Assembly: GCA_900546715.1 (NCBI GenBank)
Contig: UREA01000004.1
Coordinates: 7,395-71,394 of the forward strand
Direction of reading: 5' to 3'
DNA: 64,000 nucleotides
Origin: an uncultured Mycoplasmatota bacterium
GTDB taxonomy: Bacteria > Bacillota_I > Bacilli_A > RF39 > UBA660
Shown: one piece after another, positions 1,598 to 64,000 of the stretch
Position numbering within the stretch: the first letter of the stretch is position 1
Layout: each line of letters begins with the position of its first letter
Program-made: the position numbers and the translations under genes
Notes under the pieces: generated by a model
Database searches by the model: none
What the model saw: the letters and a program-made list of their open reading frames with translations, nothing else
What the model was told of the DNA's origin: nothing

Positions 1598-1948
1598 TTA
1601 ATTCTTAGGTTTAGCCACTAAAGATACTAAAAAGGCAAATATTATAGCTCCAGCAATAGCAGCTGATGATTTGGTAAACATATTAGAAAATATCCCTAGT
1701 ATTCCTTCCGCCATATACCCCTGAATTGCAGCCTGATAAAGCATATGACCAAAATTTGATATTAACACTGTTGCTCCAGCTCCAAATTTAACAACTAAAT
1801 CATCATATACTCCAAGAAATGAAAGTAAGGCTCCAATTGCAGTATAAATACTTGTAATATGTCCTGGCGTAAGTTTGGTATTATCTAAAATAATCTGGGC
1901 TATTGCACAAGCAAATCCGGCGAATAAAAAGGCATTTAGAAAATTCAT
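1598..1948 (-). CDS. spoVAE: Stage V sporulation protein AE (SpoVAEb-like small membrane protein)
   Basis: 116-aa hydrophobic protein immediately downstream of spoVAD. This size and position are typical of SpoVAEb. Confidence 0.75.
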   Translation of the reverse strand: MNFLNAFLFAGFACAIAQIILDNTKLTPGHITSIYTAIGALLSFLGVYDDLVVKFGAGATVLISNFGHMLYQAAIQGYMAEGILGIFSNMFTKSSAAIAGAIIFAFLVSLVAKPKN

Positions 1949-27229: not shown

Positions 27230-29260
27230 TTATTTCTTTATCTTAAACATAAATTTAACATTACTATTCCAAAATCTTTTTAATCTCTTAGGTTCAGTAA
27301 TTATCCTATAAAACCATTCTAAATTAAGTTTAATAAATATCTTTGGTGCTCGCATTTTAGCTCCACTTAAAACATCAAAAGAGCCACCTACTCCAATATA
27401 TATACCTTTTTTAGCTTTATCAAAATACTTATAAATTAATTTCTCTTGATTAGGTATACCTAAAGCTACCATACATATATCAGGATTTAATTTAATTATA
27501 TCTTCCATTATTTTATCTTTATCATCAACATAACCATTACTAAATCCAAGTAACTTAATATTTTTATATTCTTTTTTTATTTTTTCCACTAACGCTTGAA
27601 TAACCTCTTCTTTAGCTCCAAATAAATACATTGAATATTTATTTGTATTAGCAACATTCAACAAGTGTTCTGTAATATCAATACCTGTAATTCTTTCAGG
27701 TATTGATATATTTATTTTTCTTGCAACTTTTACAACTGCAATACCATCAGGAACAAAACTATAATTACCATCTAAAATATTTTTTAACTCTTTATCTTTT
27801 TCACTCATCATTAATGTTTCCGGATTAACAGTAATTATAAATCTTTTATTTTTATTTTTTAAATCCTTATCTAATTCATCAAAGTATTCATTTTTACTTT
27901 TACTATATAGTTTTTTTAAATATTCTTGCATAATTTCACCGTATTTATATCTACTATTATTGTTAATTAAAAACATAAATAATATACCTAAATATATACT
28001 ACAAGAAGGATAACCGATTATATGTCCCGACAAAAAAGATAACATTAAAAGAAACAATATGGTAAAACTAGCAATAATATTATCTATAGTTTTAAAACAA
28101 TATTTTAAAACTAATTTAATCATAAGAACTAAAGGAATCAACAAAACTAATACACCTAAAATACCATAATGAAATAATATATCTAAAAAATCTATCTCAG
28201 CATACAAAATAATATTACAATTATTAATTTGATTATTGTTAGTAAACCCGATTCCAAAAAATTTATTTTCTAAAGTTGAATCTTTATATATATTATATAA
28301 AGTATATGCTTTATTTTCCCTACCATTCAATAAACCATGAATGACTTTTTCTACTATTTCATTATTTACAACACTAGAAAAGCGATAATATTTCCCACAA
28401 GATTCATTTTGTAAATTTTTATTTATATTATCATTCTTTTTTACTTCTTTTATAGGATTATCGTTTCCAGTTACATTATTAGAAACATTATTCGTAGTTG
28501 GAGCAACAAAGGTTAATAAAATAAGTAAACAAAACACTATTAATGAAGAATAACACATAAATTTGTTTTTTCTATTTTTAACAAAATAAATAATTGTAAT
28601 AAATAACATTAATATTATTATACCAAACCAACTAACTTTAGTGCCTATCATAAAAATACTAAATATTATAGGTATAAGTAATAAAATTAATTTTCTATTA
28701 CTATTTTCTAGTTTTATAAAGAAGCTTGAAAATAGCATTAAAATAATAGCTCCAATTTCATTACCAGAGTAAAACCAACCTATGGTACCTATAGAATTTA
28801 ATCTTAAAGGATATGTAGGAAATCCTGTATTAGTAATTATTGGAATAATTAATAATACAGTATAAATTAGTAAAGTATAAAATAAAATATTATTATAGAA
28901 ATCCTTTTTAAATTTGAAATCTTCAGATATACATAAAAATGCCAATATAATAAATCCTGTAAATAAGAATTTAAATAAGCCAACTAACTCCGCAAATAAA
29001 TTAGATTCTGTAAAAATATATGTTTTGGTTAAAAAGAAACCTATAACATATATAAAACATATAACCCAATATATTATATTTAACTTACGATACTTATTTT
29101 TACTAAAAAATAAAATATAAAAAATTAAAAATATACATAATAAAGCTTTATAAATAATGCCTAAAGATATTGGCATAAAGGAATATCTAGCATTTAAAGC
29201 AGTAATTAAATCAACAAACGGTAATAAAAGTAATACAATTAAACTAATTTTTTCCTTCAT
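27230..29260 (-). CDS. Fusion: polytopic O-antigen-polymerase/ligase-like membrane domain + TagA/WecG (GT26) N-acetylmannosaminyltransferase domain
   Basis: The C-terminal ~230 aa (..VPDGIAVVKVARKINISIPERITGIDI...GVGGSFDVLSGAKMRAPKIFIKLNLEWFYRI..) is the WecB/TagA/CpsF fold. The N-terminal ~440 aa has about 12 TM helices and is paralogous to the N-terminus of 36050..38467. Start set at MKEK (29260). Confidence 0.7.
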   Translation of the reverse strand: MKEKISLIVLLLLPFVDLITALNARYSFMPISLGIIYKALLCIFLIFYILFFSKNKYRKLNIIYWVICFIYVIGFFLTKTYIFTESNLFAELVGLFKFLFTGFIILAFLCISEDFKFKKDFYNNILFYTLLIYTVLLIIPIITNTGFPTYPLRLNSIGTIGWFYSGNEIGAIILMLFSSFFIKLENSNRKLILLLIPIIFSIFMIGTKVSWFGIIILMLFITIIYFVKNRKNKFMCYSSLIVFCLLILLTFVAPTTNNVSNNVTGNDNPIKEVKKNDNINKNLQNESCGKYYRFSSVVNNEIVEKVIHGLLNGRENKAYTLYNIYKDSTLENKFFGIGFTNNNQINNCNIILYAEIDFLDILFHYGILGVLVLLIPLVLMIKLVLKYCFKTIDNIIASFTILFLLMLSFLSGHIIGYPSCSIYLGILFMFLINNNSRYKYGEIMQEYLKKLYSKSKNEYFDELDKDLKNKNKRFIITVNPETLMMSEKDKELKNILDGNYSFVPDGIAVVKVARKINISIPERITGIDITEHLLNVANTNKYSMYLFGAKEEVIQALVEKIKKEYKNIKLLGFSNGYVDDKDKIMEDIIKLNPDICMVALGIPNQEKLIYKYFDKAKKGIYIGVGGSFDVLSGAKMRAPKIFIKLNLEWFYRIITEPKRLKRFWNSNVKFMFKIKK

Positions 29261-29699
29261 TATAAACACCTGGTATTGGTATTTGATCAACACCATTTAT
29301 TGGCTCTTGCAGTTTTAAATCTTCTTTTATTTTTGTTGTCGATATTCCTTCAGTTCTATCTAAATATACTACTTCACAGTAATCTTGTAAATAATTAAAT
29401 TTATCACTTCCGGCCCAATCTGATCCCATAACAACTATATCAACTTCATATTTTTCCACATCATTTATTTTTTGTTCCCAATTTTCCTCTGGAATTACTA
29501 AATCAACATATCTTATTGCTTCTAGCATCTTTTTCCTTGTTTCATAATTATGATATGCTTTTTTTCCTTTTATTTCATTAAATTCATCAGTTGATAATGC
29601 TACTATTAAATAATCTCCCAAAGCTTTTGCTCTTTGTAATAATCTAATATGTCCATAATGTAATAAATCAAATGTCCCATATGTTAATATTCTCTTCAT
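29244..29699 (-). CDS. tagD: Glycerol-3-phosphate cytidylyltransferase
   Basis: MKRILTYGTFDLLHYGHIRLLQRAK (HxGH motif), 151 aa. Confidence 0.9.
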   Translation of the reverse strand: MKRILTYGTFDLLHYGHIRLLQRAKALGDYLIVALSTDEFNEIKGKKAYHNYETRKKMLEAIRYVDLVIPEENWEQKINDVEKYEVDIVVMGSDWAGSDKFNYLQDYCEVVYLDRTEGISTTKIKEDLKLQEPINGVDQIPIPGVYNEGKN

Positions 29700-36049: not shown

Positions 36050-38467
36050 TTATTCCTCGATTTTTCTAATATAATCGATTAATTTATCTTTTACATTATC
36101 ATTTTTATATTTTTCACTTGTTTTTCTTGCGTTTTTTGATAACTTATTTTTTTCTTTAACGGACATATCAATATATTCTAAAACCTTATTTGCATATTTT
36201 TTTATGTCTCTATCACTTATAATAAATCCGTTTTCATTATTTCTTATAACATCTAACACTCCTTTAGCACTATCAAAGGCAATACAAGGTATTCCATAAC
36301 TCATTGCCTCAATTACCACTAAACCAAATGATTCTTCAAATGATGTCATTAAATATAAAGAACTATTTTGTAAATATTTTTTTATAAAATTTTGATTTTT
36401 AAATCCCCATAATTTAATATTATCTTCTAAATTATAATCTTTAATTAATTTAATTAAATTTTCTTTTTCTAATCCATCACCAAAAATATCTAAATGAATA
36501 CTATTATCTTGCTTTACAAAAATTTGCATTATTTTAATTAAATCAGCAAACCCTTTTATTTTATCAAGTCTACCAATGGCAATTAAATTTTTATTATTAA
36601 CTTTACTTATTTCATTATCACCCGGATAATAATTTAAGGCGAGTGGAATAAACTGCATTTTAATATTCACTTTATCTTTATATTGATCATATAAATACTT
36701 ACTTACTGGCATTATATAATCAATATTACTAAGTTTATTTAACTTAGCTATATATTCATCACTAATATCATACACATGTTGTTCACATACCTTTATTGCA
36801 TCTTTTCTTCCATATTTATTTAACAATTTACTAAATTCATATCTTGTTGATATAATTACTTTAGCATCACTATTAATTATATATTTTATTAATCTACTAT
36901 TTTTATTCATTAATATATATAAAGATTTAATGCCTTCTTTAAAAGTTTTAATTAATTTAAAACTTTTAAGACTATTAATAAATTCTTCTTTATTTGAAAC
37001 AGTATTCATTAAATATGTTACTTTTACTTTTTTACCTAACTTAAATGGTATATCATAACTTTGTTTATATAAAGAAATAATTTCTACTTCATAATTACTA
37101 CTTAGCATTGATGCTTGACTAGCTATAGCATTTTCAACTCCGCCATAACCCATATGCAAAGCTAAAAAAGCTATCTTTTTATCATTTATTTTTACTTTTT
37201 CAAATGCTTTTAAACCACTAGCTAAAAACATACAATAAACTACTATATAAATAGATACTGCAGGTGCCATATAAACATGACCCGCGACATTAGATATGCC
37301 AAGACTCATTAAAATCATTAAAATATAAAACACTCTATTTTTATTTAATTTAAATTTATCTTTAATAAGTAAATACAATAAAAATATAAATGGCATCAAG
37401 AATAATATTATTGCAATTACTCCAATATGATAAAATATATCTAAAATATCCATTTCAATTAATTTGGTTACATTTCCATTATTTATTTCAGCATTATTAT
37501 TAAAACCTAGACCAAACAATAAAGTCTCAGCATTAAAATTATCTAAATAAATTTCATTAGTGTTTTTTAAAAAATAATTTCTTTGACTAAGAAGTCTAAG
37601 TCCATATTTTTTTATTTTAACAAATAAGGAATCACCAGGAAGATCTTCGCAATTAACACATTCATATTCAGTCATTGATGGTGTTTCCATTACCGCAAAG
37701 AAATTATCCATTGTATAACTTCCAATACTAATCATTAATATTACAATAAATACAATTAAACTAGAAATAAACGGATTTTTAAATACTTTTTTATTATACA
37801 AATAAGATATTATAAGTACAATAAAACCAGTAATTAAAAGCCCAAATAAAGTTACTTTAGTACCAACATAACTTATAACTAGTAATATTGGAAGTATTCC
37901 CAAAAATAAATATTTTCTTTTATTACTAATTAAAAGATAAGAAAAAGGAAATAATAAAACTAGTATTGTAGAAACTTCATTCGCCGCATAGAACCAACCA
38001 ATCATACCATATAAACCATTTTCATAAGTATTAAAACTAGTACCAGTAAGTATTGGTAATATTAATAAAACAGAATAAACAATTATAGTATAGAGCATTA
38101 ATTTTTCTATTATTTCTTTTTCAAAACCGATATCATCAAATAAACATAAAAATGAGAAAAAGCCAATTGGAAAGAACAAAAATTTTACTAAATAATTTAT
38201 TTCATTAAATAAAACATTAAAATTATCAATAGGTTTACATACTAAATAAAATGTACTGAATAAAAAAGCTAATATAATATATATAATTGTTATTTTTTTA
38301 TATTTTGATTTAGTTAAGAAAATAGAATATATCACTAAAAATACAAGTAATAATCCTTTAATTATTCCTCCGATAGATATAGATACATCTAAAAATCTAG
38401 CAGTTATGGAACTACCTAAATCTATAAATGGCAAAAGAAGAAATAACAAATAAATAAATTTCTTCAT
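36050..38467 (-). CDS. Fusion: polytopic polymerase/ligase-like membrane domain + GT4 (GT-B) glycosyltransferase
   Basis: N-terminal ~400 aa is paralogous to the N-terminus of 27230..29260. The C-terminus has the GT4 motif EESFGLVVIEAMSYGIPCIAFD. Confidence 0.7.
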   Translation of the reverse strand: MKKFIYLLFLLLPFIDLGSSITARFLDVSISIGGIIKGLLLVFLVIYSIFLTKSKYKKITIIYIILAFLFSTFYLVCKPIDNFNVLFNEINYLVKFLFFPIGFFSFLCLFDDIGFEKEIIEKLMLYTIIVYSVLLILPILTGTSFNTYENGLYGMIGWFYAANEVSTILVLLFPFSYLLISNKRKYLFLGILPILLVISYVGTKVTLFGLLITGFIVLIISYLYNKKVFKNPFISSLIVFIVILMISIGSYTMDNFFAVMETPSMTEYECVNCEDLPGDSLFVKIKKYGLRLLSQRNYFLKNTNEIYLDNFNAETLLFGLGFNNNAEINNGNVTKLIEMDILDIFYHIGVIAIILFLMPFIFLLYLLIKDKFKLNKNRVFYILMILMSLGISNVAGHVYMAPAVSIYIVVYCMFLASGLKAFEKVKINDKKIAFLALHMGYGGVENAIASQASMLSSNYEVEIISLYKQSYDIPFKLGKKVKVTYLMNTVSNKEEFINSLKSFKLIKTFKEGIKSLYILMNKNSRLIKYIINSDAKVIISTRYEFSKLLNKYGRKDAIKVCEQHVYDISDEYIAKLNKLSNIDYIMPVSKYLYDQYKDKVNIKMQFIPLALNYYPGDNEISKVNNKNLIAIGRLDKIKGFADLIKIMQIFVKQDNSIHLDIFGDGLEKENLIKLIKDYNLEDNIKLWGFKNQNFIKKYLQNSSLYLMTSFEESFGLVVIEAMSYGIPCIAFDSAKGVLDVIRNNENGFIISDRDIKKYANKVLEYIDMSVKEKNKLSKNARKTSEKYKNDNVKDKLIDYIRKIEE

Positions 38468-50592: not shown

Positions 50593-51467
50593 TTATTTTG
50601 CATTCATTATTTTTTCTTTTACCTTCATAATTAATTTTTTTACAATGAGGTCTCTTGAATGTAAATCATTATTCTTACCCAATAATAAGTTTTCATAAAA
50701 CTTTATTAAGAAACTATTATCTTGTTTTATATTTAAATAATTATTAAAGTAATTACTTCTTACTAGTGCATTTCTATAATAAACAGATTTATCTTTGAAC
50801 ATAGTATTATCTACCGTATATCCAAGCGATATTAGATTAGATACTTTTCTATAAATAGTGCAGTAGTTCTAGTATTACCTTCTCTAAATGGGTGGACCTG
50901 CCACAAATTAGAAGAAAAACTAGTTATATTATTAATCACATCAACCATATTCAATTCTTTATAATTTTTCATTTTTTCTAATGATATATCATAATCTAAT
51001 GATTGCTCTAAAAATCTACAATCACCATAAGCAACTGAATCATTATATAAAATTCTTTCATGTTTAGAAAAATCTACTTTTCTAAATTCTCCAGCAAATT
51101 CGTATACATCCTTGAATAAAAATTTGTGAATATATTTTATATAGTCTACTGATAATTCAAAATTATCTTCTTCTAATAGCTCAACAATTCTCGTAGAAAC
51201 TAAATCGCATTCAAATTCATCCCAAACTATTTCATCTGATTGATCTTTTTCTACATAATATCGTTTTAATTCATGTTCAACTTCATAAATGGTTTTCTCA
51301 CCTGTTACATTTTCTTGTAATAACTTTTCTAAATACTTAGATGGCTTTAAATTATCAACTTCTTGAAGTCCAATTGCCATATCCCACTCTTGTTGTTTTA
51401 TATTATTTTTAGGTGTCTTTGTTTCAACATAATTATTTACACTTGAATCTAATTCTTTTTCAGACAT
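50593..51467 (-). pseudogene. Fic/Doc-family protein gene disrupted by a frameshift near 50830
   Basis: ORF 50832..51467 ends just after the Fic motif HPFREGNTRTTALFIEKYLI. The expected C-terminal remainder (..SLGYTVDNTMFKDKSVYYRNAL..) continues in another frame, through ORF 50593..50802. Confidence 0.55.
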
Positions 51468-51551
51468 TCTAACATCTCCATTTATAACAGTATACCAAAA
51501 AGATTTCTATTTGTCATTGATATACAGATTTTATAAGACGATATTTATTTT

Positions 51552-52454
51552 TTAAATATCAAGTTCCTTTGCATATTTAAAATCAACAATCTCTCCATCT
51601 TTGGTTTTGATCCAACCAATAAACTTATGAGACCAATCTGACAAATCTTTAGCACTCTTTCCCTTAAATTCATCAATTATTTTATCTAATACTTTTATTT
51701 CATTTTCATTAAAACAAGACAAATCAGCATCTTGAAGAGGTGCAAATAACATAGCTGAATCATCAACTGATGAAGCAAGCTTAATATAATCTTGTTTAAT
51801 TAATAAGTTAAGTAAGGCATCTTGATTATTAACAATTGGACCAAATGGCGCATGAGCATATTTAAAATTACTTATTGCTTTATTAAATAATTTATAATTT
51901 AGAAAATCAGATGCAAATAAATATTTCATTAATTGTGTTCTATTTAATATAACTTTATTAAGTATATATAAAATTACATTAATACTTTTATAATCAATAT
52001 CAACATTTATTCTATCTAATATTTTATAATATTTTTCTTTAGATAAATTTTTATTATTTTTTAAAATATTATAAATATTATCTTTATTATTTAATAGGCT
52101 TATATAAGTATCAAGATATTCTTTCTGTGGCAGTGATTTGGCATTTTCATATCTTGTTATTGTTTTTTTACTCCACCCAAGAGCTTCCGCAAATAACCCT
52201 TGAGATAAATTTAGTGACTCTCTTATTTCTTTTAATTTTTCAAAACTTAAACCAAATAAATTTAAATAAGCAACATTTATATCATGTACAAACACATCAT
52301 AATCATCAAAATCATATTCAGTTTCACATATTGGACAAGTAAAAACTCTTTCATCAATCACAACATTTTGACCATGAATATTATGATTAGTTTTTTCAAC
52401 CCTTACTTCCACCATTACATCTTTATCACATTCAAAACAATACATTTTTTCCAT
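51552..52454 (-). CDS. Zinc-finger/HTH(XRE)-Panacea(DUF4065) fusion protein, putative autoregulated antitoxin
   Basis: N-terminal CFEC...CPIC zinc ribbon (MqsA-like), an HTH (LSQGLFAEALGWSKKTITRYE), and a C-terminal Panacea signature (..RTQLMKYLFASDF...FKYAHAPFGPIV). Confidence 0.6.
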   Translation of the reverse strand: MEKMYCFECDKDVMVEVRVEKTNHNIHGQNVVIDERVFTCPICETEYDFDDYDVFVHDINVAYLNLFGLSFEKLKEIRESLNLSQGLFAEALGWSKKTITRYENAKSLPQKEYLDTYISLLNNKDNIYNILKNNKNLSKEKYYKILDRINVDIDYKSINVILYILNKVILNRTQLMKYLFASDFLNYKLFNKAISNFKYAHAPFGPIVNNQDALLNLLIKQDYIKLASSVDDSAMLFAPLQDADLSCFNENEIKVLDKIIDEFKGKSAKDLSDWSHKFIGWIKTKDGEIVDFKYAKELDI

Positions 52455-53850: not shown

Positions 53851-56481
53851 TTATTCATCTTTAAAAACCTTAGTTATAATTGGTTTTAATAACTCTAAAA
53901 CTATAAAGGCAATTAAATTAACAAGTATTACAAATATAAATTGTGACATATTTATAATTTCTAAACCAAATAATTTACCGGCAGGTGTAAAGAACACTAT
54001 GATTTGAATCGCAAATAATACTAATATTCCTAAATTTAGATACTTATTAGAAAATATGCCTTTTTCTATTATTGGTCTTTTTAAACTCCGACAATTATAA
54101 GCAAAAACAAATTCATTTAACACAATACTAAATAGTGCCATTGTCTGAGCAATACCTTCTCCCATATTTTCAAATAAGAAATATACCAAAATACTAATAC
54201 CTGCTTCTAAAATAACTGAAATAATTAAAAATGCTATAAAAAACGGTGTAAATATTCTTTTATTTAAACCATGTGGCTTTTCCTTCATAATATTCTTAGT
54301 TGGACCTTCAAAAGCAAGAGCAATTGATGGTATAGTATCAGCTACCAAATCGATATATAATACATGTATTGCACTAATTATATTACTTCCCATAAACATA
54401 CCAAGCAAAATAATAACAATTTCTGTAAAATTACTTGATAAATTATATAACACATTTGTTATAACATTATCATAAATTCTTCTACCATTTTCTACAGCTA
54501 CAGTAATTGTATTATAAGAATCATCGAGCAAAATAATATCTGCAACATTTTTAGTAACATCCGTACCACTCTTACCCATGCCAATTCCCACATTAGCAAG
54601 TTTCATCGCTGGAGCATCATTTACCCCATCCCCCGTCATTGCAACAACCATTTTTCGTCTTTGTAAAGCCTTAACAATTTGGAGTTTATTCTCAGGACTT
54701 ACTCTTGCAAACACAGAATACTTACTAATGCATTCAGCAAGTTCTGATTTTTTCATATTTTTAAGAACTGTAGCATTAATTCCTTCATCATCACTACTTA
54801 TTATACCAACCTCTTTACCTATAGCAAGAGCTGTCTCTAAGTTATCACCAGTAAGCATTATTGGTCTAATTCCTGCACTCTTACAAGCTTCTATTGCTGC
54901 TCTTACATTTTTTCTTACAGGATCTTTAAGTCCCACTAATCCCACTAAAATCAAATCATTTTCTTCTTTAAAATAATCTTCTTCTCGCACCTGTTTAGTT
55001 TTAACTTCCTTATATGCAAAAGCAAGCACCTTTAAAGCTTCATGAGAATAATCTTTTTCTATATCTAGATAATTATTTTTGATCTCTTTAGTTAGTTTTG
55101 TTTTTTTACCATCTATTAAAACATATTTACATCTTTTAATTAAATTTTCCAAACTTCCCTTAGTATAAATATAATATTTTTTATCATCTTCATAAATTAC
55201 ACTCATTAATTTTCTATCAGAATCAAATGGTAGTTCAAGTTTTTCTTTTTTACTTTTTCTTAAATTTTCTATATTAATTTTATATTTTAATAAATAGTTA
55301 GCTAAAGCAACTTCAACACTATCTCCAAAAAATTTTTTATTATCAAGTGCAGCATTATTACATAAAGCCATAATATCAATTAATTCTGGATTATTTTTAA
55401 TATCACTCAAATTAATTATATTATTATTCGTATAAACTTTGATAACTTCCATTTGATTAGTAGTAAGTGTTCCTGTTTTATCAGTACAAATAGCTTCCGT
55501 AGCTCCTAGAGTTTCAATTGCTGCTAAATTTCTAACAATTGATTTTTTACGAGCCATTTCACTAACTCCAATAGACAATGTTGCAGTTATAGCAATTGGT
55601 AAACATTCTGGAACACTAGCAACAATCATTGAAATACAAAGCATAAAAACATTTAGCAAAGAATAATCCATGATTATGCCATAACACATAACAAAAGCTA
55701 CTAAAAAAGCTGCAATACCTGAAATAAACGAAGATATCTTTTTGATTTTAACTTGTAATGGTGTAATTGGTTCAACTGAAGTATCAATACTAGCAGCAAT
55801 TTTACCAAGCTCTGTATCCATACCAATATCAACAACTATTGCTTCTATCTTACCAGCAGTAACTACTGTCCCTGAAAAAACCATGTTTTTACGTTCCGAA
55901 ATAGTTAGATTACCATTTAATACTTCATCAGTTTTTTCAACATTTAAACTTTCTCCAGTTAATATTGCCTCATCACATTTAGCAAAATGACTTTCTATAA
56001 TTCTAGCATCCGCCGGAACTTTATCACCAGCTTCCAATATTATATAATCACCATTTACTAAGTTAGTTGAATCAATTTCTTCTATTTTACCATCTCTTTT
56101 AACAGTTGTATGAACAGAAGAATAATTCTTAAGTTTTTCAATTGCATCTTCAGCCTTTGATTCTTGTAAATACCCCATTATACAATTAATTAAAGTAGTA
56201 CCTAAAATTACAATTGGTTCCAAAAAATCTCCATCAGTAAATATCGCATAAAATAAAGACATTAAACCTACAACCAATAAAAGAATAATCATTACATTTT
56301 TAAATTGTTTCAAAAATATACTTAATTTACTCTTCTTATTCTTTTCAATTAAAACATTTTTACCAAGTATAGTTTGTCTTTTCCTAGCATCAGCCTCACT
56401 TATACCATCCATACTTGTTTTATATTCTTTAAATATTTCTTCTTTATTTTTTAAATATGCATCATTCACTATTATCACCAT
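53851..56481 (-). CDS. P-type cation-transporting ATPase, Ca2+-ATPase (P2A/YloB-like)
   Basis: Phosphorylation site ICTDKTGTLT, TGES, hinge motifs MTGDGVNDAPAMK and MLTGDN; 876 aa with ten TM helices. Confidence 0.9.
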   Translation of the reverse strand: MVIIVNDAYLKNKEEIFKEYKTSMDGISEADARKRQTILGKNVLIEKNKKSKLSIFLKQFKNVMIILLLVVGLMSLFYAIFTDGDFLEPIVILGTTLINCIMGYLQESKAEDAIEKLKNYSSVHTTVKRDGKIEEIDSTNLVNGDYIILEAGDKVPADARIIESHFAKCDEAILTGESLNVEKTDEVLNGNLTISERKNMVFSGTVVTAGKIEAIVVDIGMDTELGKIAASIDTSVEPITPLQVKIKKISSFISGIAAFLVAFVMCYGIIMDYSLLNVFMLCISMIVASVPECLPIAITATLSIGVSEMARKKSIVRNLAAIETLGATEAICTDKTGTLTTNQMEVIKVYTNNNIINLSDIKNNPELIDIMALCNNAALDNKKFFGDSVEVALANYLLKYKINIENLRKSKKEKLELPFDSDRKLMSVIYEDDKKYYIYTKGSLENLIKRCKYVLIDGKKTKLTKEIKNNYLDIEKDYSHEALKVLAFAYKEVKTKQVREEDYFKEENDLILVGLVGLKDPVRKNVRAAIEACKSAGIRPIMLTGDNLETALAIGKEVGIISSDDEGINATVLKNMKKSELAECISKYSVFARVSPENKLQIVKALQRRKMVVAMTGDGVNDAPAMKLANVGIGMGKSGTDVTKNVADIILLDDSYNTITVAVENGRRIYDNVITNVLYNLSSNFTEIVIILLGMFMGSNIISAIHVLYIDLVADTIPSIALAFEGPTKNIMKEKPHGLNKRIFTPFFIAFLIISVILEAGISILVYFLFENMGEGIAQTMALFSIVLNEFVFAYNCRSLKRPIIEKGIFSNKYLNLGILVLFAIQIIVFFTPAGKLFGLEIINMSQFIFVILVNLIAFIVLELLKPIITKVFKDE

Positions 56482-56545: not shown

Positions 56546-58012
56546 CTATTTTTTCTTTTTATTTTTCTTCTTCTTTTTATTATTGTTTATATTATCATAA
56601 ACTATTGAATCTTGTTTAGTTTTATCATCTTTTTTCTCTTCAATTATCTGTTCTTTTTTATTTTCCCCCTTCATTTCTTTTACATTATCTTTTTCTTTAA
56701 GAACATTCCCTTTAATTTCTTTATTTTTATTCTTATGTTTCTTTTTACCTCTTAAAGCACATATTAATATGATAAACATTAAAACAAAAAGACCAATAAA
56801 TCCAAATATAATATAAGTATATAAATTTATTTTTTCATTTAAAGTATTAATCATCTCATCATCATATTTTATAGCACTTTGATCAATCTTATCATATTTA
56901 AAGAATCCTTCTTCACCAGTTTCTACATTAATACCATAAATAATTGCAAATCTAGAGTCATCACCAACATAAAAAGAATTAACTAGTATATCATTAATCG
57001 TTATCGTTCCACTTTTATATCCTTCTAATACTTTATCAGTACTCATTGGATAAATTGTTAAATTACTTAATTTGAGTTCATTATAAATTTTATAAGTATT
57101 ATCTTCTGCATTATATATATAAAGAGCAATATTACCTTCTTCATCTTTAAGACCTACTAAAGTAAAACCAGTTAGTTCTGATGTATATGCCGGTATTTCA
57201 AAATCATTAATATTTACTGTTGTCTCTTGATAAGCATTAACCTGCGGCAAATAATCTTTTATTTTAACAACTGTTAAATTTTTATCATATACTACTACAT
57301 TTATGGGATTTTCATCTTTAACTTCAACTGTTAAAGTATATGTTTTTTCACTACCATTTTCAGCTCTTACAACAATTTGAAAAGTATTAGTACCTTGAGT
57401 TACTGTTTGTGTGCCCGCCCCAGTTACACTTGCAGCACTATCATTTTCTTCAGCATTAATAGTTATTTCTGTTGTATTTTCTGGCACAACTACACTATAT
57501 TCTGTTACATCTTTATCAAATTCTGGTGATATTTCAAAGCCTTCAACTGATAAACTTTTTAAATCATTATCTTTTGAATATGATGCTTCTAATTCTTCTT
57601 GAGTCATAATACGAACATTTTTAGTCCCCGCACTTAAATCCATAGCACTCATATCTTCATAAGCATATGCCGAATAACTACTCATACTAATCTTAGTTCT
57701 CCCACTTTTTAAAGCTCTAAATCTAAATGTATAACTTTTACTTTTAGTACCAGAAGAAGAATTAACCATACTTACTCCTCCACCTTCACTATTGGTACTA
57801 ATAAGTTCTAAATAATTGCGATCATAATTTAAATCCATATCCCAACTACCAATTGGTGTTGAACTTGACAGTGTTACTGTAATAGATACTGTATTTCCTA
57901 CAACAGCACTTGATGTACCTGTAATTTTTATACTTCCTGATGCTGCACTAACACTAATAGGAAAAACCACTAAACAAATCAAACTAATTATTATTGTCTT
58001 TAAATGTTTCAA
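56546..58012 (-). CDS. Membrane-anchored surface protein with N-terminal cohesin-like domain and cadherin-like beta-sandwich domain
   Basis: Signal peptide, then a cohesin-like pattern (VGNTVSITVTLSSSTPIGSWDMDLNYDRNYLELIS). A cadherin-like domain follows (LKSLSVEGFEISPEFDKDVTEYSVVVPENT...). C-terminal TM and a KKKK tail. Confidence 0.55.
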   Translation of the reverse strand: MKHLKTIIISLICLVVFPISVSAASGSIKITGTSSAVVGNTVSITVTLSSSTPIGSWDMDLNYDRNYLELISTNSEGGGVSMVNSSSGTKSKSYTFRFRALKSGRTKISMSSYSAYAYEDMSAMDLSAGTKNVRIMTQEELEASYSKDNDLKSLSVEGFEISPEFDKDVTEYSVVVPENTTEITINAEENDSAASVTGAGTQTVTQGTNTFQIVVRAENGSEKTYTLTVEVKDENPINVVVYDKNLTVVKIKDYLPQVNAYQETTVNINDFEIPAYTSELTGFTLVGLKDEEGNIALYIYNAEDNTYKIYNELKLSNLTIYPMSTDKVLEGYKSGTITINDILVNSFYVGDDSRFAIIYGINVETGEEGFFKYDKIDQSAIKYDDEMINTLNEKINLYTYIIFGFIGLFVLMFIILICALRGKKKHKNKNKEIKGNVLKEKDNVKEMKGENKKEQIIEEKKDDKTKQDSIVYDNINNNKKKKKNKKKK

Positions 58013-58028
58013 TATTTATCCTCCTTTT

Positions 58029-59765
58029 TTATTGAACAATTTCATATGTACCTAAAATATATTTTTGTATTTGTAATAAATCTAGGGCATTAATTACTCC
58101 ATCACCAGAAGTATCTCCAGCAAGTGCATATACATCTGATAAACTATATGTTTCTAAAATATATTTTTGTACTTGTAATAAATCTAGGGCATTAATCACG
58201 CCATCACCAGAAGTATCTCCTTTAATAGCAATCTTTAAAGTTTCACTTCCAGTTGCATTAGCAATTTTTATTTGCATACCTGTTGTAACTGTTCCTGTTT
58301 GAAGTTCATTACCATTACTATCCATAATAATTACAGTATTATAACCAGATACTGATTCTATTGCTCCTTTAATAGTATTAATATCACTTCCTACACTAAC
58401 ACCAGTCATGTAACCACTTTGATATTTATAACCGCTGGATGTTACAATAGTACTTATTGGTAAATTACTTAAGCTTGAATCTGGTTCATCCCCAGTTGCT
58501 CCATTATTACTATTATTAATTGTTGAATTCATATTTGTAAACACAGGAATATAAAACACATATGCTTGTGATAAAATTCCCAAATCACTATAAGACTTAT
58601 ATGTAGATGCTGATTCACTTGAAGGTGCTGCAATATTTGTTTGATATTGATGAGTAAATTGCGAATTCATATCTGTAGGAACTAAATTAAATTTTTGTAA
58701 ATATGTAGTATATTGTCCAGCATTAATATAACTAGAAGAAATAAAACTTGCTCCACCAGCTAAAGCATTTTCCAAACCATACCAATTATGATCTTTAGCA
58801 TATTCTAAACCACAATAAGTTGCCCCATTAGTTGTAGCACAAGAATCACTTACTCCATAATTATAAAAATTATAATAACCTTCATATCCAGGATAAACTC
58901 CACTATATAAATTATAAAGACTTGTTGATGTTCCCATTTCTTGTAAAATGCGTGATGCCAAAAAGGTTGGACTTACATCAAGAGTTGAACCAACATTATC
59001 AATAATAACACCTAAATCATTTCCTAAATTAGCATGATATGTATAAAATGCTGCACTATCTATTATAGCTTTAACACTATTTGGATAATATGGTTTTATT
59101 AAAGAAGAATACTTTAAATATTCAAATTGAAATATAAATCTATCTGATAAAAAATTACGAGGATCCATATAATATGCTAAGGCTTGTTGACTAGCATTCT
59201 TCCAAGAACTATCCCAACCATATTGATTATTACAAGATCGGTCCATAAAAGATTCATTTGTAGTTTGAATATAACTTTTACCGCAAGAACTTTCTCTTTG
59301 AACCGCATAACTCCAATCTAGATTAGTTTGAAGAGCTACAAATTGCCAATTAGGATACATTTCTTTTAAATGACATAAACCTCCCCAATAACTTGATGGA
59401 AATCCTAAATTACTCATTTCTATTTCACAAGTAGTACTTGGTGCGACATCATCAGTACTATGACTATAAACAACATCAACATGATCCCCACAAACATAAC
59501 CACTATCAACTCCATTATAATATATTTGATACCAATCACTATTACAATCATAATGATTATTAGTATCTTGATATGTTTTATCTTCTACCAAAGTATAATA
59601 TGAACCAATATATGCTGAAGAAATTTTAGTATTTTGTGTACCTGGACCAGTTCTTACATTACAAGAAGAATTGATATAAGCACGAGCAGTCGTAGCTGCA
59701 TTTGCATCAGCTAAAAATATAAACATAATTAAAAAACTAAATAATATATATTCAACTTTTTTCAT
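58029..59765 (-). CDS. Secreted protein with SH3b-like domain, central putative cell-wall hydrolase-like region and C-terminal type-I dockerin
   Basis: Signal peptide. The C-terminal duplicated segment GDTSGDGVINALDLLQVQKYIL / GDTSGDGVINALDLLQIQKYIL is a canonical dockerin double Ca-binding repeat. Confidence 0.65.
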   Translation of the reverse strand: MKKVEYILFSFLIMFIFLADANAATTARAYINSSCNVRTGPGTQNTKISSAYIGSYYTLVEDKTYQDTNNHYDCNSDWYQIYYNGVDSGYVCGDHVDVVYSHSTDDVAPSTTCEIEMSNLGFPSSYWGGLCHLKEMYPNWQFVALQTNLDWSYAVQRESSCGKSYIQTTNESFMDRSCNNQYGWDSSWKNASQQALAYYMDPRNFLSDRFIFQFEYLKYSSLIKPYYPNSVKAIIDSAAFYTYHANLGNDLGVIIDNVGSTLDVSPTFLASRILQEMGTSTSLYNLYSGVYPGYEGYYNFYNYGVSDSCATTNGATYCGLEYAKDHNWYGLENALAGGASFISSSYINAGQYTTYLQKFNLVPTDMNSQFTHQYQTNIAAPSSESASTYKSYSDLGILSQAYVFYIPVFTNMNSTINNSNNGATGDEPDSSLSNLPISTIVTSSGYKYQSGYMTGVSVGSDINTIKGAIESVSGYNTVIIMDSNGNELQTGTVTTGMQIKIANATGSETLKIAIKGDTSGDGVINALDLLQVQKYILETYSLSDVYALAGDTSGDGVINALDLLQIQKYILGTYEIVQ

Positions 59766-59913
59766 GCTATTCTCCTTATATTAGATTCATAATAATTATA
59801 TCATTTTCGACCAATTTCGACAAATTTTTACAAAAAAAATTGTAAAACTAATGTAAACATCTATTATTTTTGAGTATTTTATAATATAATAAGTTTGAAA
59901 TGGTGGTTTTTGT

Positions 59914-60369
59914 ATGAAACATTTTGATAAAATTGACATAATTTTTATTGTTCTAATTTCTATATATTTATTAGTATTATTTATAGGTATCCTTTGGTTT
60001 ATATTAGATAAACTAGAAAAAAAATATTGGTTACCAAAGAAAAATTCTATTAATAAAACTTCTGTACCAATAGAAGAAAAGAAAACCTCTGTTAAAAAGC
60101 CAAATAAAACAATTAATACTAAAGCTACTAACAATAAAACTTCTACTCCTAAAAAGCAAACATCTATCAAGAAGCCATCAACTACTACAACTAAAAAAGC
60201 TGCAAGTAAAACAACCACAAAAACTACAACTAAAAAAACTAATACTAATAAAACTAAAACTACTACAGTTAAAAAGCAACCAAATAATTCTAGAAGAAAT
60301 ACTGGATATGTATCACCAACTAAAAGAAAGAAAACTAATAAACGCAAAAAAAAGACATCTAAGAAATAA
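59914..60369 (+). CDS. Membrane-anchored protein with Lys/Thr-rich basic low-complexity tail
   Basis: GGTGG RBS before the ATG. N-terminal TM (IIFIVLISIYLLVLFIGILWFIL), then a K/T/N-rich tail. The overlapping minus ORF 59796..60347 has shadow-like composition. Confidence 0.45.
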   Translation: MKHFDKIDIIFIVLISIYLLVLFIGILWFILDKLEKKYWLPKKNSINKTSVPIEEKKTSVKKPNKTINTKATNNKTSTPKKQTSIKKPSTTTTKKAASKTTTKTTTKKTNTNKTKTTTVKKQPNNSRRNTGYVSPTKRKKTNKRKKKTSKK

Positions 60370-60370
60370 C

Positions 60371-61309
60371 TTAAATGTCTTTTTCTGTTTCTTTAATTAT
60401 ATATATAGGACGATGTTTTGTTTCCAAATAAGTTTTAGAAAGATATAATCCCATAATACCTATACAAAATAATTGAATACCACTAACAAACATTATAATA
60501 CATACTAGTGATGGCCAACCAGCTACTGGATCACCAAAACATAAAGTTCTTACTATAATTACAATAATCATTAAAAAGGCAATCAAACAAAATATAATAC
60601 CAATAAATGCACTAAGTACTAATGGTGTTGTTGAAAAAGCTGTAATTCCTTCAATTGCATAACCAAATAACTTCCAAAAACTCCACTTACTATATCCCGC
60701 TACTCTTTCTTTATTTTCAAATTCGATCCATTTAGTATTAAATCCTACAAAACCAAAGATCCCTTTTGAATACCTATTATATTCTGGCATTGAAATTATA
60801 GCATCAACCATTTGCCTTGTCATTAATCTAAAATCTCTAGCTCCATCAACCATTTCTGTTTTCGATAATTTATTAATTATCTTATAAAACATTTTTGTGA
60901 AAAACTTCCTAAGTGGTGAATATCCATGCCTAGATACACTTCTAGATGCACAGCAATCATATTCCCCAATTTCTAATGTCTCAAACATTTCTATTAACAA
61001 CTCTGGTGGATCTTGCAAATCAACATCCATTGTTGCTACATAGTCCCCTGTTGCATGTTCTAACCCCGCTAAAATACCAGCTTCTTTACCAAAATTTCTA
61101 GAAAACGAAATATATCTTACAGTCTTATCTTTTTTAGCTAAATCTCTTAGCATTTCCAATGTCTTATCCTTACTTCCATCATTTATAAAGATAAATTCAA
61201 AAGTTGCCTTCTTTTTTAATTTTTCAACAATCTTACCCATTTCCTCATAAAATATTGGCAATGATTCTTCTTCATTATAACATGGTACTACAATTGATAT
61301 TTTTTTCAT
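60371..61309 (-). CDS. Polyprenol-phosphate hexose synthase, GT2 (CsbB/GtrB-like)
   Basis: KISIVVPCYNEEESLPIFYEEM...FINDGSKDKT... with two C-terminal TM helices. Confidence 0.8.
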   Translation of the reverse strand: MKKISIVVPCYNEEESLPIFYEEMGKIVEKLKKKATFEFIFINDGSKDKTLEMLRDLAKKDKTVRYISFSRNFGKEAGILAGLEHATGDYVATMDVDLQDPPELLIEMFETLEIGEYDCCASRSVSRHGYSPLRKFFTKMFYKIINKLSKTEMVDGARDFRLMTRQMVDAIISMPEYNRYSKGIFGFVGFNTKWIEFENKERVAGYSKWSFWKLFGYAIEGITAFSTTPLVLSAFIGIIFCLIAFLMIIVIIVRTLCFGDPVAGWPSLVCIIMFVSGIQLFCIGIMGLYLSKTYLETKHRPIYIIKETEKDI

Positions 61310-64000
61310 TTACTACTTCCTTTCTTAAACACAATCAATTTACTTAATATATAATTACCTATAATTACTACAATTTGCACAAGTATTTTTGATATTGTAT
61401 CATTATAATGCAGACAAGTAACTAAAATAAACATTAAGAACATATCTATTAATAAAGTAACTATTCTTGATGAAAAGAAACTAGTCACTTCTTTTAAAAT
61501 GTTTTTATTTTCACTAGCAAACACAAATATCCGATTAGTAACATAAGCAAAAGCTACCGATATAACCCAAGATAAGACATTTGCTATTTGTAACTCCAAT
61601 GAATTTGTTGCATCTAAAAATGTATGAGTAAATATAAAGTATGTTACAATACTTATAACAGTTGTAAGTACTCCAAAAATTAAATACATTATTATTTCTT
61701 GATATTTCTTAAATAATTTATCAAACTTTTCTTGAAATTTTTCATAAATACAAACAGCAATGAACCCCATTAATCCTACAATTGATGCAAGTATTCCAAG
61801 TAACTTACCGGGAGAATTATATGAAATTTCTATTTTATGTGATCCTGCAGGTACCTTAAATCCTACAAAAGCACTATTTACCATTTCTGCTTCTACTTCC
61901 TCTTCATCAACCATTATACTAAATCCTTCATCATAAGGAATACTAGTAATAACATAAGAATCATTTTTAGCTTCTACCTTACCAGTAATTTTACTACTAC
62001 CTTTATCAATATTTAAATCATCTATCTCTTCATAATTAATTTCCCCATAATCCATAGTATAAATATTAATATTAGATATTTCAAATCTTCCTTTACTTAT
62101 TTCTATTTCTAAATTTCTAATATCTTCATTACTTGATAAAACATATTCAAAAGTATAGTTTTGATTGTGATATCTCCAAGAACGACATGTAAGTTTATTC
62201 GTCTCTCCATTAATAGTAATTGAAGTATCTCCTCTAGAACAAGATTCATTATAATTCATATCAAAAGTAATAATTAAATATTTATTACTAATTGCCTCTG
62301 GCAATTCATAATTATATGTCGTACTTTCATCTAATTTAAAAGTGTAATTATTATCTAATTTCCAATCTAACTTTTCTATATGACTCTCATAATCTGCATA
62401 CCCACCATCAACTATTGGACTATTTAACATATAATCAACATTATAAGGAAACTCTAAAGATTCATATACCTCACTACTTCCAACATTATCAGTCACATAA
62501 ACTAAAGGAAAAGCTAGTTTATTATAATATAAATTCAAATCACCTGAACTGGCAACTTCCTCATAACCTAAACCTGGAGAATTATCACTAATAACATACT
62601 TAATTCCCATTAAATTGTTAAATAATTCATTTTTTGTTCCGGCACTAACAAATAAATTACGATATACTATATTATTACCAACACCAAAATTATAAAAGTT
62701 CCAGTAATTATTATTATAATTAGAAGAATATAAAGTTGCACTATAATAATTTTCATTATAATACTTATTCGAAGTATCTAGTGGAAAATTTTCATTTATA
62801 CTTCTATAATATCCGTGATCATTTATACTATCAAGTAAAGTTATTACATCACCACTATTAATATTTTCATATCTATCTATACTTACATATTCTTCATTAG
62901 TATTATTAATAATACTACTTACAAGTAAAAATAGTATTATTGGAATATATAAAATATAATTTTTTTGATATTTATTAAATAACAATATTAAAATAAAACT
63001 TATTAAAACATCTATAGAAAAACAAATGAGTACATCGTCATTATAATTATCAAATAAAGCAAACAGTATTAATATTAAAGCACCTACTCCTAAAGCTTTA
63101 TAATTTATATTTTTATCTTTAATATTTTTAATGAACAATGCAAGTATTATAATATAAATTACCACAAATGGTATTAATACTTTACCTCTAATATATAAAA
63201 ATCCATTTAAAGCATACATAAATATAGGTATTAAAGTAATAATTAAAGTACTTACTCCTAAAAATACTTCACTTCTTTTTTTCTTTTTAGTAACTATTAA
63301 CCCAATTGGTGCCAGTAAAAATATAGCAGTAATCCCCATACTAAATGATTTATAAACTACTTCTTTTAAATTGGGATATATTAAATCTATTAAAGAATTA
63401 CTTACATCACTTAATCTTCCCGAATTCATTATGACATAAGCACTCGGAATAAGTATTATCGCTGCCATAAGTATTGGCACAATTATTCTAATACTTGCTT
63501 TTAATACATCAATTAAAAACTCTTTTAAATTAAATGTTTTTTTATCAAGCAATTTATATACTCCATATAATAACACTGCAATTATCGCTGGAATACTATA
63601 ATAATAATTAGTCATTATTATTAAAAATATACTTATCATTAAAATATAAGATTTATTATCATTTATATATTTATCTACCCCAATTAATGCTAGTATTAAA
63701 AATGGCATATACCAAACAAACATAATATGATGATGACTTTGATATGTAATTGAACTAAAAGTTATTAAAGCTAAACTAAGTACTAAAGATAATTTATTAT
63801 CTAAAGTATTATTCTTTAAAAACTTATACATTAATATTCCAGATGCTAAGTATAACAAAATACTTGCTATAATTATATAAGTAGCCATATTTATAAATGG
63901 CAAAAAATAAGATATTAAAATAACGGGGCTTAAAAGTCCATAATAACTATAATTAAATATATTTTGGCCCGATCCAATATTAATAGCTAAATCCGGAGCT
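61306..64000 (-). CDS. YfhO-family GT-C membrane glycosyltransferase fused to a C-terminal GtrA-like domain (5' end outside the window)
   Basis: Over 860 aa, polytopic. The C-terminal ~120 aa (..LIFGVLTTVISIVTYFIFTH...NRIFVF..) is GtrA-like. The reading frame is open past the window end, and the track start is a TTG. Confidence 0.7.
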   Translation of the reverse strand, partial: APDLAINIGSGQNIFNYSYYGLLSPVILISYFLPFINMATYIIIASILLYLASGILMYKFLKNNTLDNKLSLVLSLALITFSSITYQSHHHIMFVWYMPFLILALIGVDKYINDNKSYILMISIFLIIMTNYYYSIPAIIAVLLYGVYKLLDKKTFNLKEFLIDVLKASIRIIVPILMAAIILIPSAYVIMNSGRLSDVSNSLIDLIYPNLKEVVYKSFSMGITAIFLLAPIGLIVTKKKKRSEVFLGVSTLIITLIPIFMYALNGFLYIRGKVLIPFVVIYIIILALFIKNIKDKNINYKALGVGALILILFALFDNYNDDVLICFSIDVLISFILILLFNKYQKNYILYIPIILFLLVSSIINNTNEEYVSIDRYENINSGDVITLLDSINDHGYYRSINENFPLDTSNKYYNENYYSATLYSSNYNNNYWNFYNFGVGNNIVYRNLFVSAGTKNELFNNLMGIKYVISDNSPGLGYEEVASSGDLNLYYNKLAFPLVYVTDNVGSSEVYESLEFPYNVDYMLNSPIVDGGYADYESHIEKLDWKLDNNYTFKLDESTTYNYELPEAISNKYLIITFDMNYNESCSRGDTSITINGETNKLTCRSWRYHNQNYTFEYVLSSNEDIRNLEIEISKGRFEISNINIYTMDYGEINYEEIDDLNIDKGSSKITGKVEAKNDSYVITSIPYDEGFSIMVDEEEVEAEMVNSAFVGFKVPAGSHKIEISYNSPGKLLGILASIVGLMGFIAVCIYEKFQEKFDKLFKKYQEIIMYLIFGVLTTVISIVTYFIFTHTFLDATNSLELQIANVLSWVISVAFAYVTNRIFVFASENKNILKEVTSFFSSRIVTLLIDMFLMFILVTCLHYNDTISKILVQIVVIIGNYILSKLIVFKKGSSK

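Follow-up and report, generated by a model that had tools for sequence, protein, structure and literature searches.

Cohesin-dockerin pairing is the textbook principle of cellulosome assembly, and its roles elsewhere have mostly been catalogued and rarely explained. Two adjacent genes on a 64,000-nucleotide stretch of DNA from an uncultured Mycoplasmatota bacterium (contig UREA01000004.1; the whole stretch is called the window below) raise the question of what such a pair does outside a cellulosome. A first-pass annotation had read their products as a dockerin-bearing secreted protein and a cohesin-bearing membrane protein, together forming a two-component surface-display system. Both open reading frames (ORFs) were recovered as annotated, with 578 aa from an ATG start and 488 aa from a TTG start. 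We refer to their products as the hydrolase and the anchor (Table 1).

The answer that fits best is a dedicated 1:1 tether, putatively Ca2+-dependent, which holds a secreted autolysin of family GH73 on the membrane of its own producer. We consider this reading probable. It rests on the identity of the domains, the fold of the cohesin module, the operon layout, the conservation in two classes, the one-to-one occurrence of both modules and the exchange, between strains, of X-dockerin together with the cohesin.

Domains of the hydrolase and its membrane anchor

Residues 515–571 of the hydrolase matched the Pfam family Dockerin_1 (PF00404) over the full 57-position model (E 3.5e-13, 50.0 bits against a cut-off of 22.9). 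The duplicated repeat claimed for this protein, GDTSGDGVINALDLLQ(V/I)QKYIL, was found with 21 of 22 residues identical between positions 516–537 and 550–571. In both repeats, the Ca2+-loop reads D-T-S-G-D-G-V-I-N-A-L-D, with D1, S3, D5, N9 and D12 in the pattern D-x-S-x-D-x-x-x-N-x-x-D, and a helix follows. Judged by its sequence, the C-terminus has the make-up of a type I dockerin, i.e. two EF-hand-like repeats of ~22 residues, each with a loop and a helix. The PDB matches were also of type I: 2ccl_B was found with an E-value of 1.6e-6 for the whole protein and 2.6e-7 for the X-dockerin region alone as query, and 4dh2_B was matched as well.

The SH3b-like domain noted earlier was recognised as SH3_3, and what had been a possible wall-hydrolase region could be sharpened to a GH73 glucosaminidase domain. 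With phmmer, this region matched the PDB structures of AtlE (4pi7, 5.7e-10), SagB (6fxp and 6u0o, 8.6e-10 and 1.2e-9), Atl (6fxo, 3.6e-9) and Clostridium perfringens Acp (5wqw, 6.6e-9). In the alignment, E276 (ILQEMG) falls on the Glu of the motifs LVETG in AtlE and LLETG in SagB, and it is at least 95% conserved in 78 orthologs. We take the aligned residues to be the catalytic E138 and E155. The predicted reaction is the hydrolysis of GlcNAc-beta-1,4-MurNAc in peptidoglycan. As Pfam PF01832 gave no match to the hydrolase at E≤1 despite this homology, the protein is a divergent member of GH73. The NCBIfam model of SagB scored 48.5 bits (E 6.4e-13), far under its equivalog cut-off of 425 bits, and the hydrolase is therefore not a SagB ortholog. 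The X module between GH73 and dockerin had no Pfam match and no PDB sequence match.

In the 488-aa protein, the cadherin-like domain and the C-terminal membrane anchor were both borne out; the former (PF12733) was present in 24 of 24 orthologs, and the hydrophobic stretch at 397–420 lies within a helix of the AlphaFold 2 (AF2) model. The N-terminal cohesin needed more evidence. Pfam Cohesin (PF00963) gave no match to the anchor itself, even at E≤1, and a phmmer search of the PDB with the full-length anchor gave none. The family profile, the orthologs and the predicted fold did identify it. PF00963 matched nine of the 24 anchor orthologs (best E 1.7e-7), which are 62–88% identical overall. When a profile of the N-terminal module was compared with the PDB, cohesins led the list: ScaA of B. 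cellulosolvens (2y3n_A) came first with 2.8e-4 and the next match had 9.1e-4, with 1tyj, 3l8q and NagJ following.

The AF2 model of residues 24–138 had a predicted local distance difference test score (pLDDT) of 94.6 and a predicted template modelling score of 0.85, and it shows the flattened beta-sandwich jelly-roll of the cohesin fold. In a Foldseek search with this modelled module, the best 10 PDB folds were all cohesins, with template modelling scores of 0.62–0.79. They were led by 2jh2_A of C. perfringens (0.79, E 7e-8), 2xdh of A. fulgidus, 4dh2_A (OlpC, in third place) and 2w1n; other beta-sandwiches (CLIPPER, CARDB and complement MG domains) came lower in the list. For the full-length anchor model, the best fold match was 2w1n, a cohesin-FN3 pair (E 3.5e-9). 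Because the best 10 folds are all cohesins, the module is not the non-cohesin immunoglobulin (Ig) fold that had been named beforehand as the outcome to watch for. From the ortholog matches, the family profile and the predicted fold, the N-terminal module of the anchor is a cohesin.

A module of this kind might still not bind the neighbouring dockerin. The anchor could be an independent adhesin or stalk, and the dockerin could bind a wall polymer or a protein that is encoded elsewhere. The missing PF00963 match to the window's anchor and the lower-ranking CLIPPER, CARDB and complement MG folds would suit such a reading, while the 10 leading cohesin folds and the nine orthologs matched by Pfam Cohesin speak against it. 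We regard it as clearly unlikely, and further evidence on both sides is given in the following sections.

By their layout, the hydrolase and anchor genes are a tight bicistronic unit. A terminator-like hairpin was found after the preceding GT2 gene. The promoter-like sites in this AT-rich region were not enriched over shuffled sequences, so that the best of them (Table 1) is weak evidence of a promoter.

Taken as a tether, the pair would work as follows. The GH73 endo-beta-N-acetylglucosaminidase would be exported by Sec. Its N-terminal SH3b domain would bind peptidoglycan and its GH73 domain would cut glycan strands, with E276 as the general acid. The C-terminal X-dockerin dyad would plug, in a Ca2+-dependent manner, into the one cohesin at the tip of the protein encoded downstream. 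This anchor would be a type-I membrane protein whose single transmembrane helix is topped by a stalk of two beta-domains, the cadherin-like one and D3. The resulting non-covalent 1:1 link would keep a potentially lethal autolysin on the producer and at a set distance from the membrane, where the enzyme may serve wall remodelling, glycan-strand trimming or daughter-cell separation.

Besides these modules, one site in the cytoplasmic tail of the anchor stood out. The tail is otherwise of low complexity and poorly conserved, and Y472-D473 was invariant in the 24 orthologs.

Table 1. Features of the gene pair, in the order of transcription (positions in the window)
Feature	Position	Strand	Basis
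Best promoter-like site (TTGTCG-17-TG-TATAAT), ending 29 nt upstream of the hydrolase ATG	59795..59823	-	Consensus scan, 10/12 matches, extended -10
Gene 1, secreted peptidoglycan hydrolase, 578 aa (signal peptide-SH3b-GH73-X-dockerin)	58029..59765	-	ORF, ATG start; Pfam; PDB GH73 matches
Predicted Sec-type signal peptide of the hydrolase, residues 1-23 (...ADANA|A)	59697..59765	-	Read from the sequence
SH3b (SH3_3) wall-binding domain, residues 36-96	59478..59660	-	Pfam PF08239, E 8.8e-7, 29.5 bits (cut-off 27)
GH73 N-acetylglucosaminidase catalytic region, residues ~120-410	58536..59408	-	phmmer against the PDB
Predicted catalytic Glu E276 (ILQEMG)	58938..58940	-	Alignment to AtlE; conservation
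X module, ~80 residues (~430-512), between GH73 and dockerin	58230..58478	-	Without Pfam or PDB match; co-exchanged with dockerin and cohesin
Dockerin, two near-identical 22-residue Ca2+-loop/helix repeats (516-537, 550-571)	58053..58223	-	Pfam PF00404; PDB type I dockerins
16-nt intergenic junction with AAGGAGG Shine-Dalgarno sequence ending 7 nt before the gene 2 TTG	58013..58028	-	Sequence
Gene 2, single-pass membrane anchor, 488 aa (signal peptide-cohesin-linker-cadherin-like-D3-transmembrane helix-Lys-rich tail)	56546..58012	-	ORF, TTG start; AlphaFold model
Cohesin module, residues 24-138 (115 aa)	57599..57943	-	AF2, Foldseek, family profile, PF00963 matches of orthologs
Linker ...QEELEASYSKDN, residues 139-150; 3' edge of the strain-variable cassette	57563..57598	-	84% mean pairwise identity; cassette boundary
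Cadherin-like beta-sandwich, residues 151-230	57323..57562	-	Pfam PF12733, E 5.9e-12, 46.3 bits against a cut-off of 24.2
D3, beta-rich stalk region, residues 235-385	56858..57310	-	AF2 secondary structure, pLDDT ~69-89; no Pfam match
Transmembrane helix, residues 397-420, LYTYIIFGFIGLFVLMFIILICAL	56753..56824	-	Hydrophobic stretch; AF2 helix 385-420
Disordered Lys-rich cytoplasmic tail, residues 421-488 (26 K in 68)	56549..56752	-	Composition; pLDDT <50
Strain-variable cassette (GH73, X, dockerin, junction, signal peptide, cohesin)	~57560..59350	-	Identity of the window to L085 and L086 in 150-nt bins

Conservation of the gene pair

Database homologs that share the architecture numbered 1924 for the anchor and 3130 for the hydrolase, all without informative names. 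For the distribution survey, one genome was kept per GTDB species, which gave 145 relatives, and 80 loci were taken for synteny. The 145 species-level relatives all belonged to uncultured Bacilli of the gut (Ca. Onthocola, Ca. Caccenecus, 'Clostridium sp. CAG:609' and some with the label Tenericutes or Muribaculaceae). Several metagenome-assembled genomes with the pair (L011, L012, L017, L018 and others) were deposited as 'uncultured Muribaculaceae bacterium' (Bacteroidota), which is likely to be a mislabelling of bins.

In 78 of the 80 loci, the SH3b-GH73-X-dockerin gene ends ~15 nt before the cohesin gene, and the remaining two loci stop at a contig end. The flanking genes were not conserved across the 80 loci. 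Exactly one dockerin and one cohesin were found in the window and in each of the 80 loci. That every locus pairs one dockerin with one cohesin-like module argues against an anchor that acts independently of the dockerin. A protein search for other cargo with the 74-aa dockerin alone returned only fragments of 50–130 aa, which were uninformative. The absence of a cellulosome context, as annotated, stood firm: a multi-cohesin scaffoldin with many dockerin-bearing plant-wall enzymes was found neither in the window nor in the 80 loci, there were no plant-wall carbohydrate-active enzymes in the window, and the glycoside hydrolase of the dockerin protein itself is directed at peptidoglycan.

The pair is not confined to the Bacilli. 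The cultured Vescimonas fastidiosa MM35 (Oscillospiraceae, Clostridia; 61% GC) has both genes, 10 bp apart. The first, named 'dockerin type I domain-containing protein', contains SH3_3 and Dockerin and aligns with 95% of the hydrolase at 30% identity. Its downstream neighbour is named 'cadherin-like beta sandwich domain-containing protein' and is 28% identical to the anchor over the whole length (E 5e-34). A third version of the pair was found on a faecal contig with 47% GC, and the N-terminus of its anchor matched the cohesin profile with 96.5% hhalign probability. Sequence comparison thus places the conserved pair in two classes of Firmicutes, Bacilli and Clostridia. The N-terminal module of the V. 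fastidiosa anchor matched the cohesin profile weakly (hhalign E 0.002), which counts in favour of a module that does not bind.

Three further observations concern the V. fastidiosa proteins. In its hydrolase (L083 5884–7650; NZ_AP023416.1 503342–505108), the second dockerin repeat is without the Ca2+-loop residues (AAQLSGSKIAATSLL...), so that one canonical repeat is left. The RefSeq Gene Ontology term 'polysaccharide catabolic process' on this protein is probably a mis-annotation driven by the dockerin. No segment of the anchor is better conserved in the clade than the extracellular linker QEELEASYSKDN, yet it is missing from the Vescimonas ortholog.

A search for representatives with the ectodomain was dominated by giant multi-repeat cadherin-like proteins. 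The full-length family comprises at least ~80 clusters at 50% identity.

Joint exchange of the X-dockerin and cohesin modules

Conservation and correlation of the modules were computed across 78 gene pairs. Within the hydrolase, the mean pairwise identity was highest for the dockerin (72%), followed by GH73 (51%), X (43%) and SH3b (38%, the lowest). The highest correlation between modules was that of dockerin and cohesin (Spearman 0.62). In a mirror-tree partial Mantel analysis, the r of dockerin and cohesin was 0.47, a value reached in none of 2000 permutations.

When the window was compared with the two conspecific loci L085 and L086, the cassette showed 57–73% nucleotide identity, as against 97–100% in the flanking DNA. 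The identity returned to 99–100% exactly at the border between cohesin and linker. The comparison of L085 with L086 was sharper still. Their DNA was at least 97% identical throughout (mostly 99–100%), except for one block of ~950 bp (L085 3481–4440). In the hydrolase, this block takes in residues ~430–597 (X and dockerin) and in the anchor residues 1–~140 (signal peptide and cohesin), and it includes the junction between the two genes. Accordingly, the protein identity between the two was 0.99 for GH73 and 0.98 for the stalk, and 0.70 for X, 0.79 for the dockerin and 0.54 for the cohesin.

The same picture was obtained from 116 anchors. The cohesins were ≤70% identical in 284 of the 678 pairs in which the stalk was at least 95% identical. 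Six cohesin types occurred on one backbone, and five of the seven types were found on several backbones. The size of the cassette ranged from ~0.95 to 1.8 kb (X-dockerin and cohesin, sometimes GH73 too), with 50–84% identity inside DNA that is otherwise 97–100% identical. This mosaic pattern means that plug and socket were exchanged as one unit, with breakpoints at module borders. Inside the hydrolase, a conserved island at window positions 59351–59500 (94–95% identity) is flanked by divergent stretches, which suggests several recombination events.

This exchange speaks against an anchor that does not bind the dockerin: in L085 and L086 it took precisely X-dockerin and cohesin and left the catalytic domain and the stalk untouched. 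The dockerin is also the most constrained module of the hydrolase. The one result here that suits a non-binding module is that the co-divergence was not specific to the dockerin, as described below.

Several points weigh against a dedicated tether. Besides the missing Pfam match of the anchor itself, the partial r of GH73 and cohesin (0.45) was nearly equal to that of dockerin and cohesin, and physical linkage could explain part of the signal. As the GH73 value is almost as strong, the cohesin is co-inherited with the neighbouring gene, which is not a dockerin-specific co-evolution. The predicted recognition positions of the dockerin (A10, L11, Q17 and K18) were the same in the three alleles compared. 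Moreover, the window covers 64 kb of the genome, and further dockerin-bearing cargo may be encoded elsewhere. Finally, the strong diversification at strain level, as seen in the sequences, would be unusual for a housekeeping autolysin and would better suit surface antigens or weapons.

The last point leads to a different use of the same architecture, namely that of a surface weapon: a minimal 'lyticome' that lyses gut neighbours, with the cassette as the outcome of an arms race or of kin discrimination. Dockerin-borne lysozymes and carboxypeptidases in rumen metagenomes have been read as attack or defence, and the 'lyticome' concept has been proposed. In our data, the hydrolase and the cohesin were strongly diversified among conspecific strains, and the SH3b targeting domain was the least conserved module (38%). 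Against this stands the near-universal, single-copy, syntenic occurrence of the pair in two classes and across 145 relatives at species level, a pattern that resembles that of a core function. No immunity-like gene was conserved beside the pair in the 80 loci, and the short membrane-anchored stalk of the model would put the enzyme in or near the producer's own wall, with no outward projection. We therefore consider a weapon unlikely and hold to a tether on the producer itself.

The exchange also raises the possibility of polymorphic 'docking types', in which the X-dockerin/cohesin alleles would be mutually specific plug-socket pairs and a hydrolase would be captured only by cells with the matching anchor. 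We regard this extension of the tether as doubtful. A specificity switch between alleles was considered and dropped because it was without sequence support, with positions 10, 11, 17 and 18 unchanged among the three alleles. Given the same predicted contact positions, exchanged cassettes need not differ in binding specificity. If docking types did exist, a diffusible autolysin would be privatised, or the system would be a device for kin recognition or antigenic variation. They would also be a natural case of orthogonal cohesin-dockerin specificity at population level outside cellulosomes and a ready orthogonal connector set from gut bacteria.

As for the surface display proposed in the first-pass annotation, its two-component part held up, given the adjacency in 78 of 80 loci, the recurrence in Clostridia, the 1:1 occurrence and the joint exchange. 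The part that gave way is the general display platform. As the cargo is specifically a GH73 glucosaminidase, a dedicated autolysin tether fits better.

Related systems and genomic surroundings

The best structural matches to the cohesin module came from the GH84 pairs of C. perfringens (NagJ/GH84C; 2jh2, 2w1n, 2ozn), which likewise lie outside plant-fibre degradation. In C. perfringens, as in the anchor, an Ig-like/FN3-type domain follows the cohesin; the sequence identity is only 13–18%. Adams et al. are said to have described in 2008 that the cohesins and dockerins of C. perfringens sit on soluble secreted enzymes and form enzyme-enzyme complexes. In the present pair, by contrast, a dedicated membrane anchor bears the cohesin, a peptidoglycan hydrolase is the cargo and the genes are predicted to be co-transcribed.

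By sequence, the dockerin is similar to that of the type I cellulosome of Clostridium thermocellum (Xyn10B dockerin, 1ohz/2ccl), with two symmetric repeats and the canonical D/S/D/N/D Ca2+-loop positions. OlpC (4dh2) is a cell-surface anchor with a single cohesin, as is the anchor here. Unlike in cellulosomal type I systems, there is no scaffoldin, there are one cohesin and one dockerin, and there are no plant-wall enzymes (in the window and the 80 loci). Anchoring is by a transmembrane helix, whereas cellulosomal anchors use SLH domains or sortase, and the cohesin is compact (115 aa compared with 140–170 aa in cellulosomal type I).

For the restraint of a GH73 glucosaminidase at the membrane, SagB-SpdC of Staphylococcus aureus is a precedent. 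SagB has its own N-terminal transmembrane helix, and SpdC, a CAAX-protease-like protein with eight transmembrane segments, binds it within the membrane. As in the proposed tether, a membrane protein devoted to this task keeps the enzyme in place at the membrane and sets its orientation. Among the NCBIfam models, that of SagB fits the catalytic region of the hydrolase best, and SagB is also among the best PDB matches. The differences are that the enzyme here is soluble, its partner is single-pass and the predicted link is an extracellular cohesin-dockerin contact, so that the analogy is functional only.

With the amylosome of Ruminococcus bromii and the proposed 'lyticome', the pair here shares the repurposing of cohesin-dockerin assembly for a non-cellulosic substrate in gut Firmicutes, and dockerin-bearing wall hydrolases have been noted in the rumen. 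The amylosome has 26 dockerin and four cohesin proteins, compared with the 1:1 occurrence here. The 'lyticome' stands for multi-enzyme lysis of other cells, whereas the conservation of the present pair points to a self-directed tether for a single enzyme.

Precedent for the pair comes down to the 'lyticome' idea and a one-sentence genomic remark on Ruminococcus bicirculans, a non-cellulolytic gut Firmicute, in which a lone cohesin/dockerin is linked to GH73 (PMC4611034). The remark appears to express the same idea as the pair described here; within that sentence, there is no membrane-anchor architecture, distribution or cassette polymorphism. From what it states, the R. bicirculans pair is very likely a counterpart of the Vescimonas pair within the Clostridia.

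Non-cellulosomal cohesin-dockerin pairs, dockerin-bearing wall hydrolases and the lone GH73-associated pair of R. bicirculans are thus known already. In the literature searched, we found no report of a conserved bicistronic unit in which the cohesin stalk is anchored in the membrane, of its breadth across two classes of Firmicutes or of the co-exchanged X-dockerin/cohesin cassette. If the proposed mechanism is right, the pair would be a minimal 1:1 system with a clear job, i.e. a peptidoglycan glucosaminidase on a membrane stalk, in a large uncultured gut lineage with small genomes and in cultured Clostridia. The tether would be a new answer to the restraint of Gram-positive autolysins, beside SagB-SpdC and FtsEX-type control. 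Thousands of entries now labelled 'SH3 domain-containing protein', 'cadherin-like beta sandwich domain-containing protein' or 'polysaccharide catabolic process' could be re-annotated. The exchange of the cassette at exact module borders is a natural experiment in the co-inheritance of an interface and may yield orthogonal connector pairs for synthetic biology.

The gene content of the window is that of a chromosome, with RecA, LigA, PcrA/UvrD, RNase Y and SpoVAD. This bears on another origin, namely a lysis module of a prophage or mobile element that consists of an endolysin and a membrane partner. GH73 and SH3b are common parts of endolysins, and eight faecal-virome contigs labelled 'Bacteriophage sp.' carry homologs, one of them (MT839502.1) with both genes. 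These records are UNVERIFIED, short and unannotated, and a scan of IMG/VR turned up no relative of the anchor. A Sec signal peptide can be read from the sequence of either protein, the surroundings are chromosomal core and wall-biosynthesis genes (RecA, LigA, PcrA, RNase Y and teichoic acid genes), and close relatives have the pair at a conserved position, with no phage genes there. Phage origin was rejected on these grounds, and we consider it highly improbable. On the virome contig MT839502.1 (L084, 4.2 kb), the hydrolase is a variant of 718 aa that has an additional cadherin-like module. An upstream ORF resembles, by eye, the C-terminus of a translation GTPase, and the contig is probably bacterial DNA in a virome set.

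A large cluster for wall glycopolymers and teichoic acids lies at ~25900–50445 on the minus strand, with an LCP ligase, TagA/WecG, TagF-like enzymes, an ABC-2 exporter, GT4, an FkbM methyltransferase and a UDP-GlcNAc 2-epimerase. As the LCP ligase and teichoic acid genes mark the producer as walled, the substrate of the GH73 autolysin would be the producer's own envelope, as proposed for the tether. SpoVAD was found at 1948–2925 (minus strand, E 6.5e-107); the lineage bears the label 'Tenericutes' from several submitters. Taken with the LCP ligase and the teichoic acid genes, SpoVAD indicates a walled, possibly spore-forming Firmicute. The cluster also contains two unusual fusions, both on the minus strand: an O-antigen-ligase-like domain with GT1 (805 aa, 36050–38467) and an O-antigen-ligase-like domain with WecG/TagA (688 aa, 27230–29296).

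Directly downstream of the anchor, a P-type cation ATPase (Cation_ATPase_N/C, E1-E2) is encoded at 53851–56481 on the minus strand, with no predicted terminator between the two genes. It was considered as a part of the system, with Ca2+ as the link to the dockerin, and was set aside because it was kept in only 11 of the 80 loci, the closest ones. The upstream GT2 was also set aside, as it was kept in three of the 80 loci at high identity, with two weak partial matches in addition. This GT2 and a YfhO-GtrA fusion lie upstream of the pair at 60371–63903 (minus strand) and form a set of the teichoic-acid-glycosylation type. In the conspecific L086 (1–1520), DUF6020, GT2 and a separate GtrA are found in place of GT2 and the fusion, which means that the wall-glycosylation genes beside the cassette vary between strains too.

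Divergently from the operon, a 151-aa ORF at 59914–60369 on the plus strand encodes an N-terminal transmembrane segment and a Lys/Thr-rich tail of low complexity. Gene calling recovered it in both L085 (151 aa) and L086 (153 aa), without a Pfam match, and its N-terminal part was kept in 17 of the 80 loci. An antisense ORF of 183 aa that overlaps it (59796–60347, minus strand) is probably spurious. At 50832–52454 (minus strand), a Fic/DOC-family protein (211 aa) is encoded beside a protein with a helix-turn-helix and a SocA/Panacea domain (300 aa), an arrangement that resembles a toxin-antitoxin system. At 17046–22352, also on the minus strand, LemA is followed by three tandem DUF2207 membrane-protein paralogs of 623, 616 and 352 aa.

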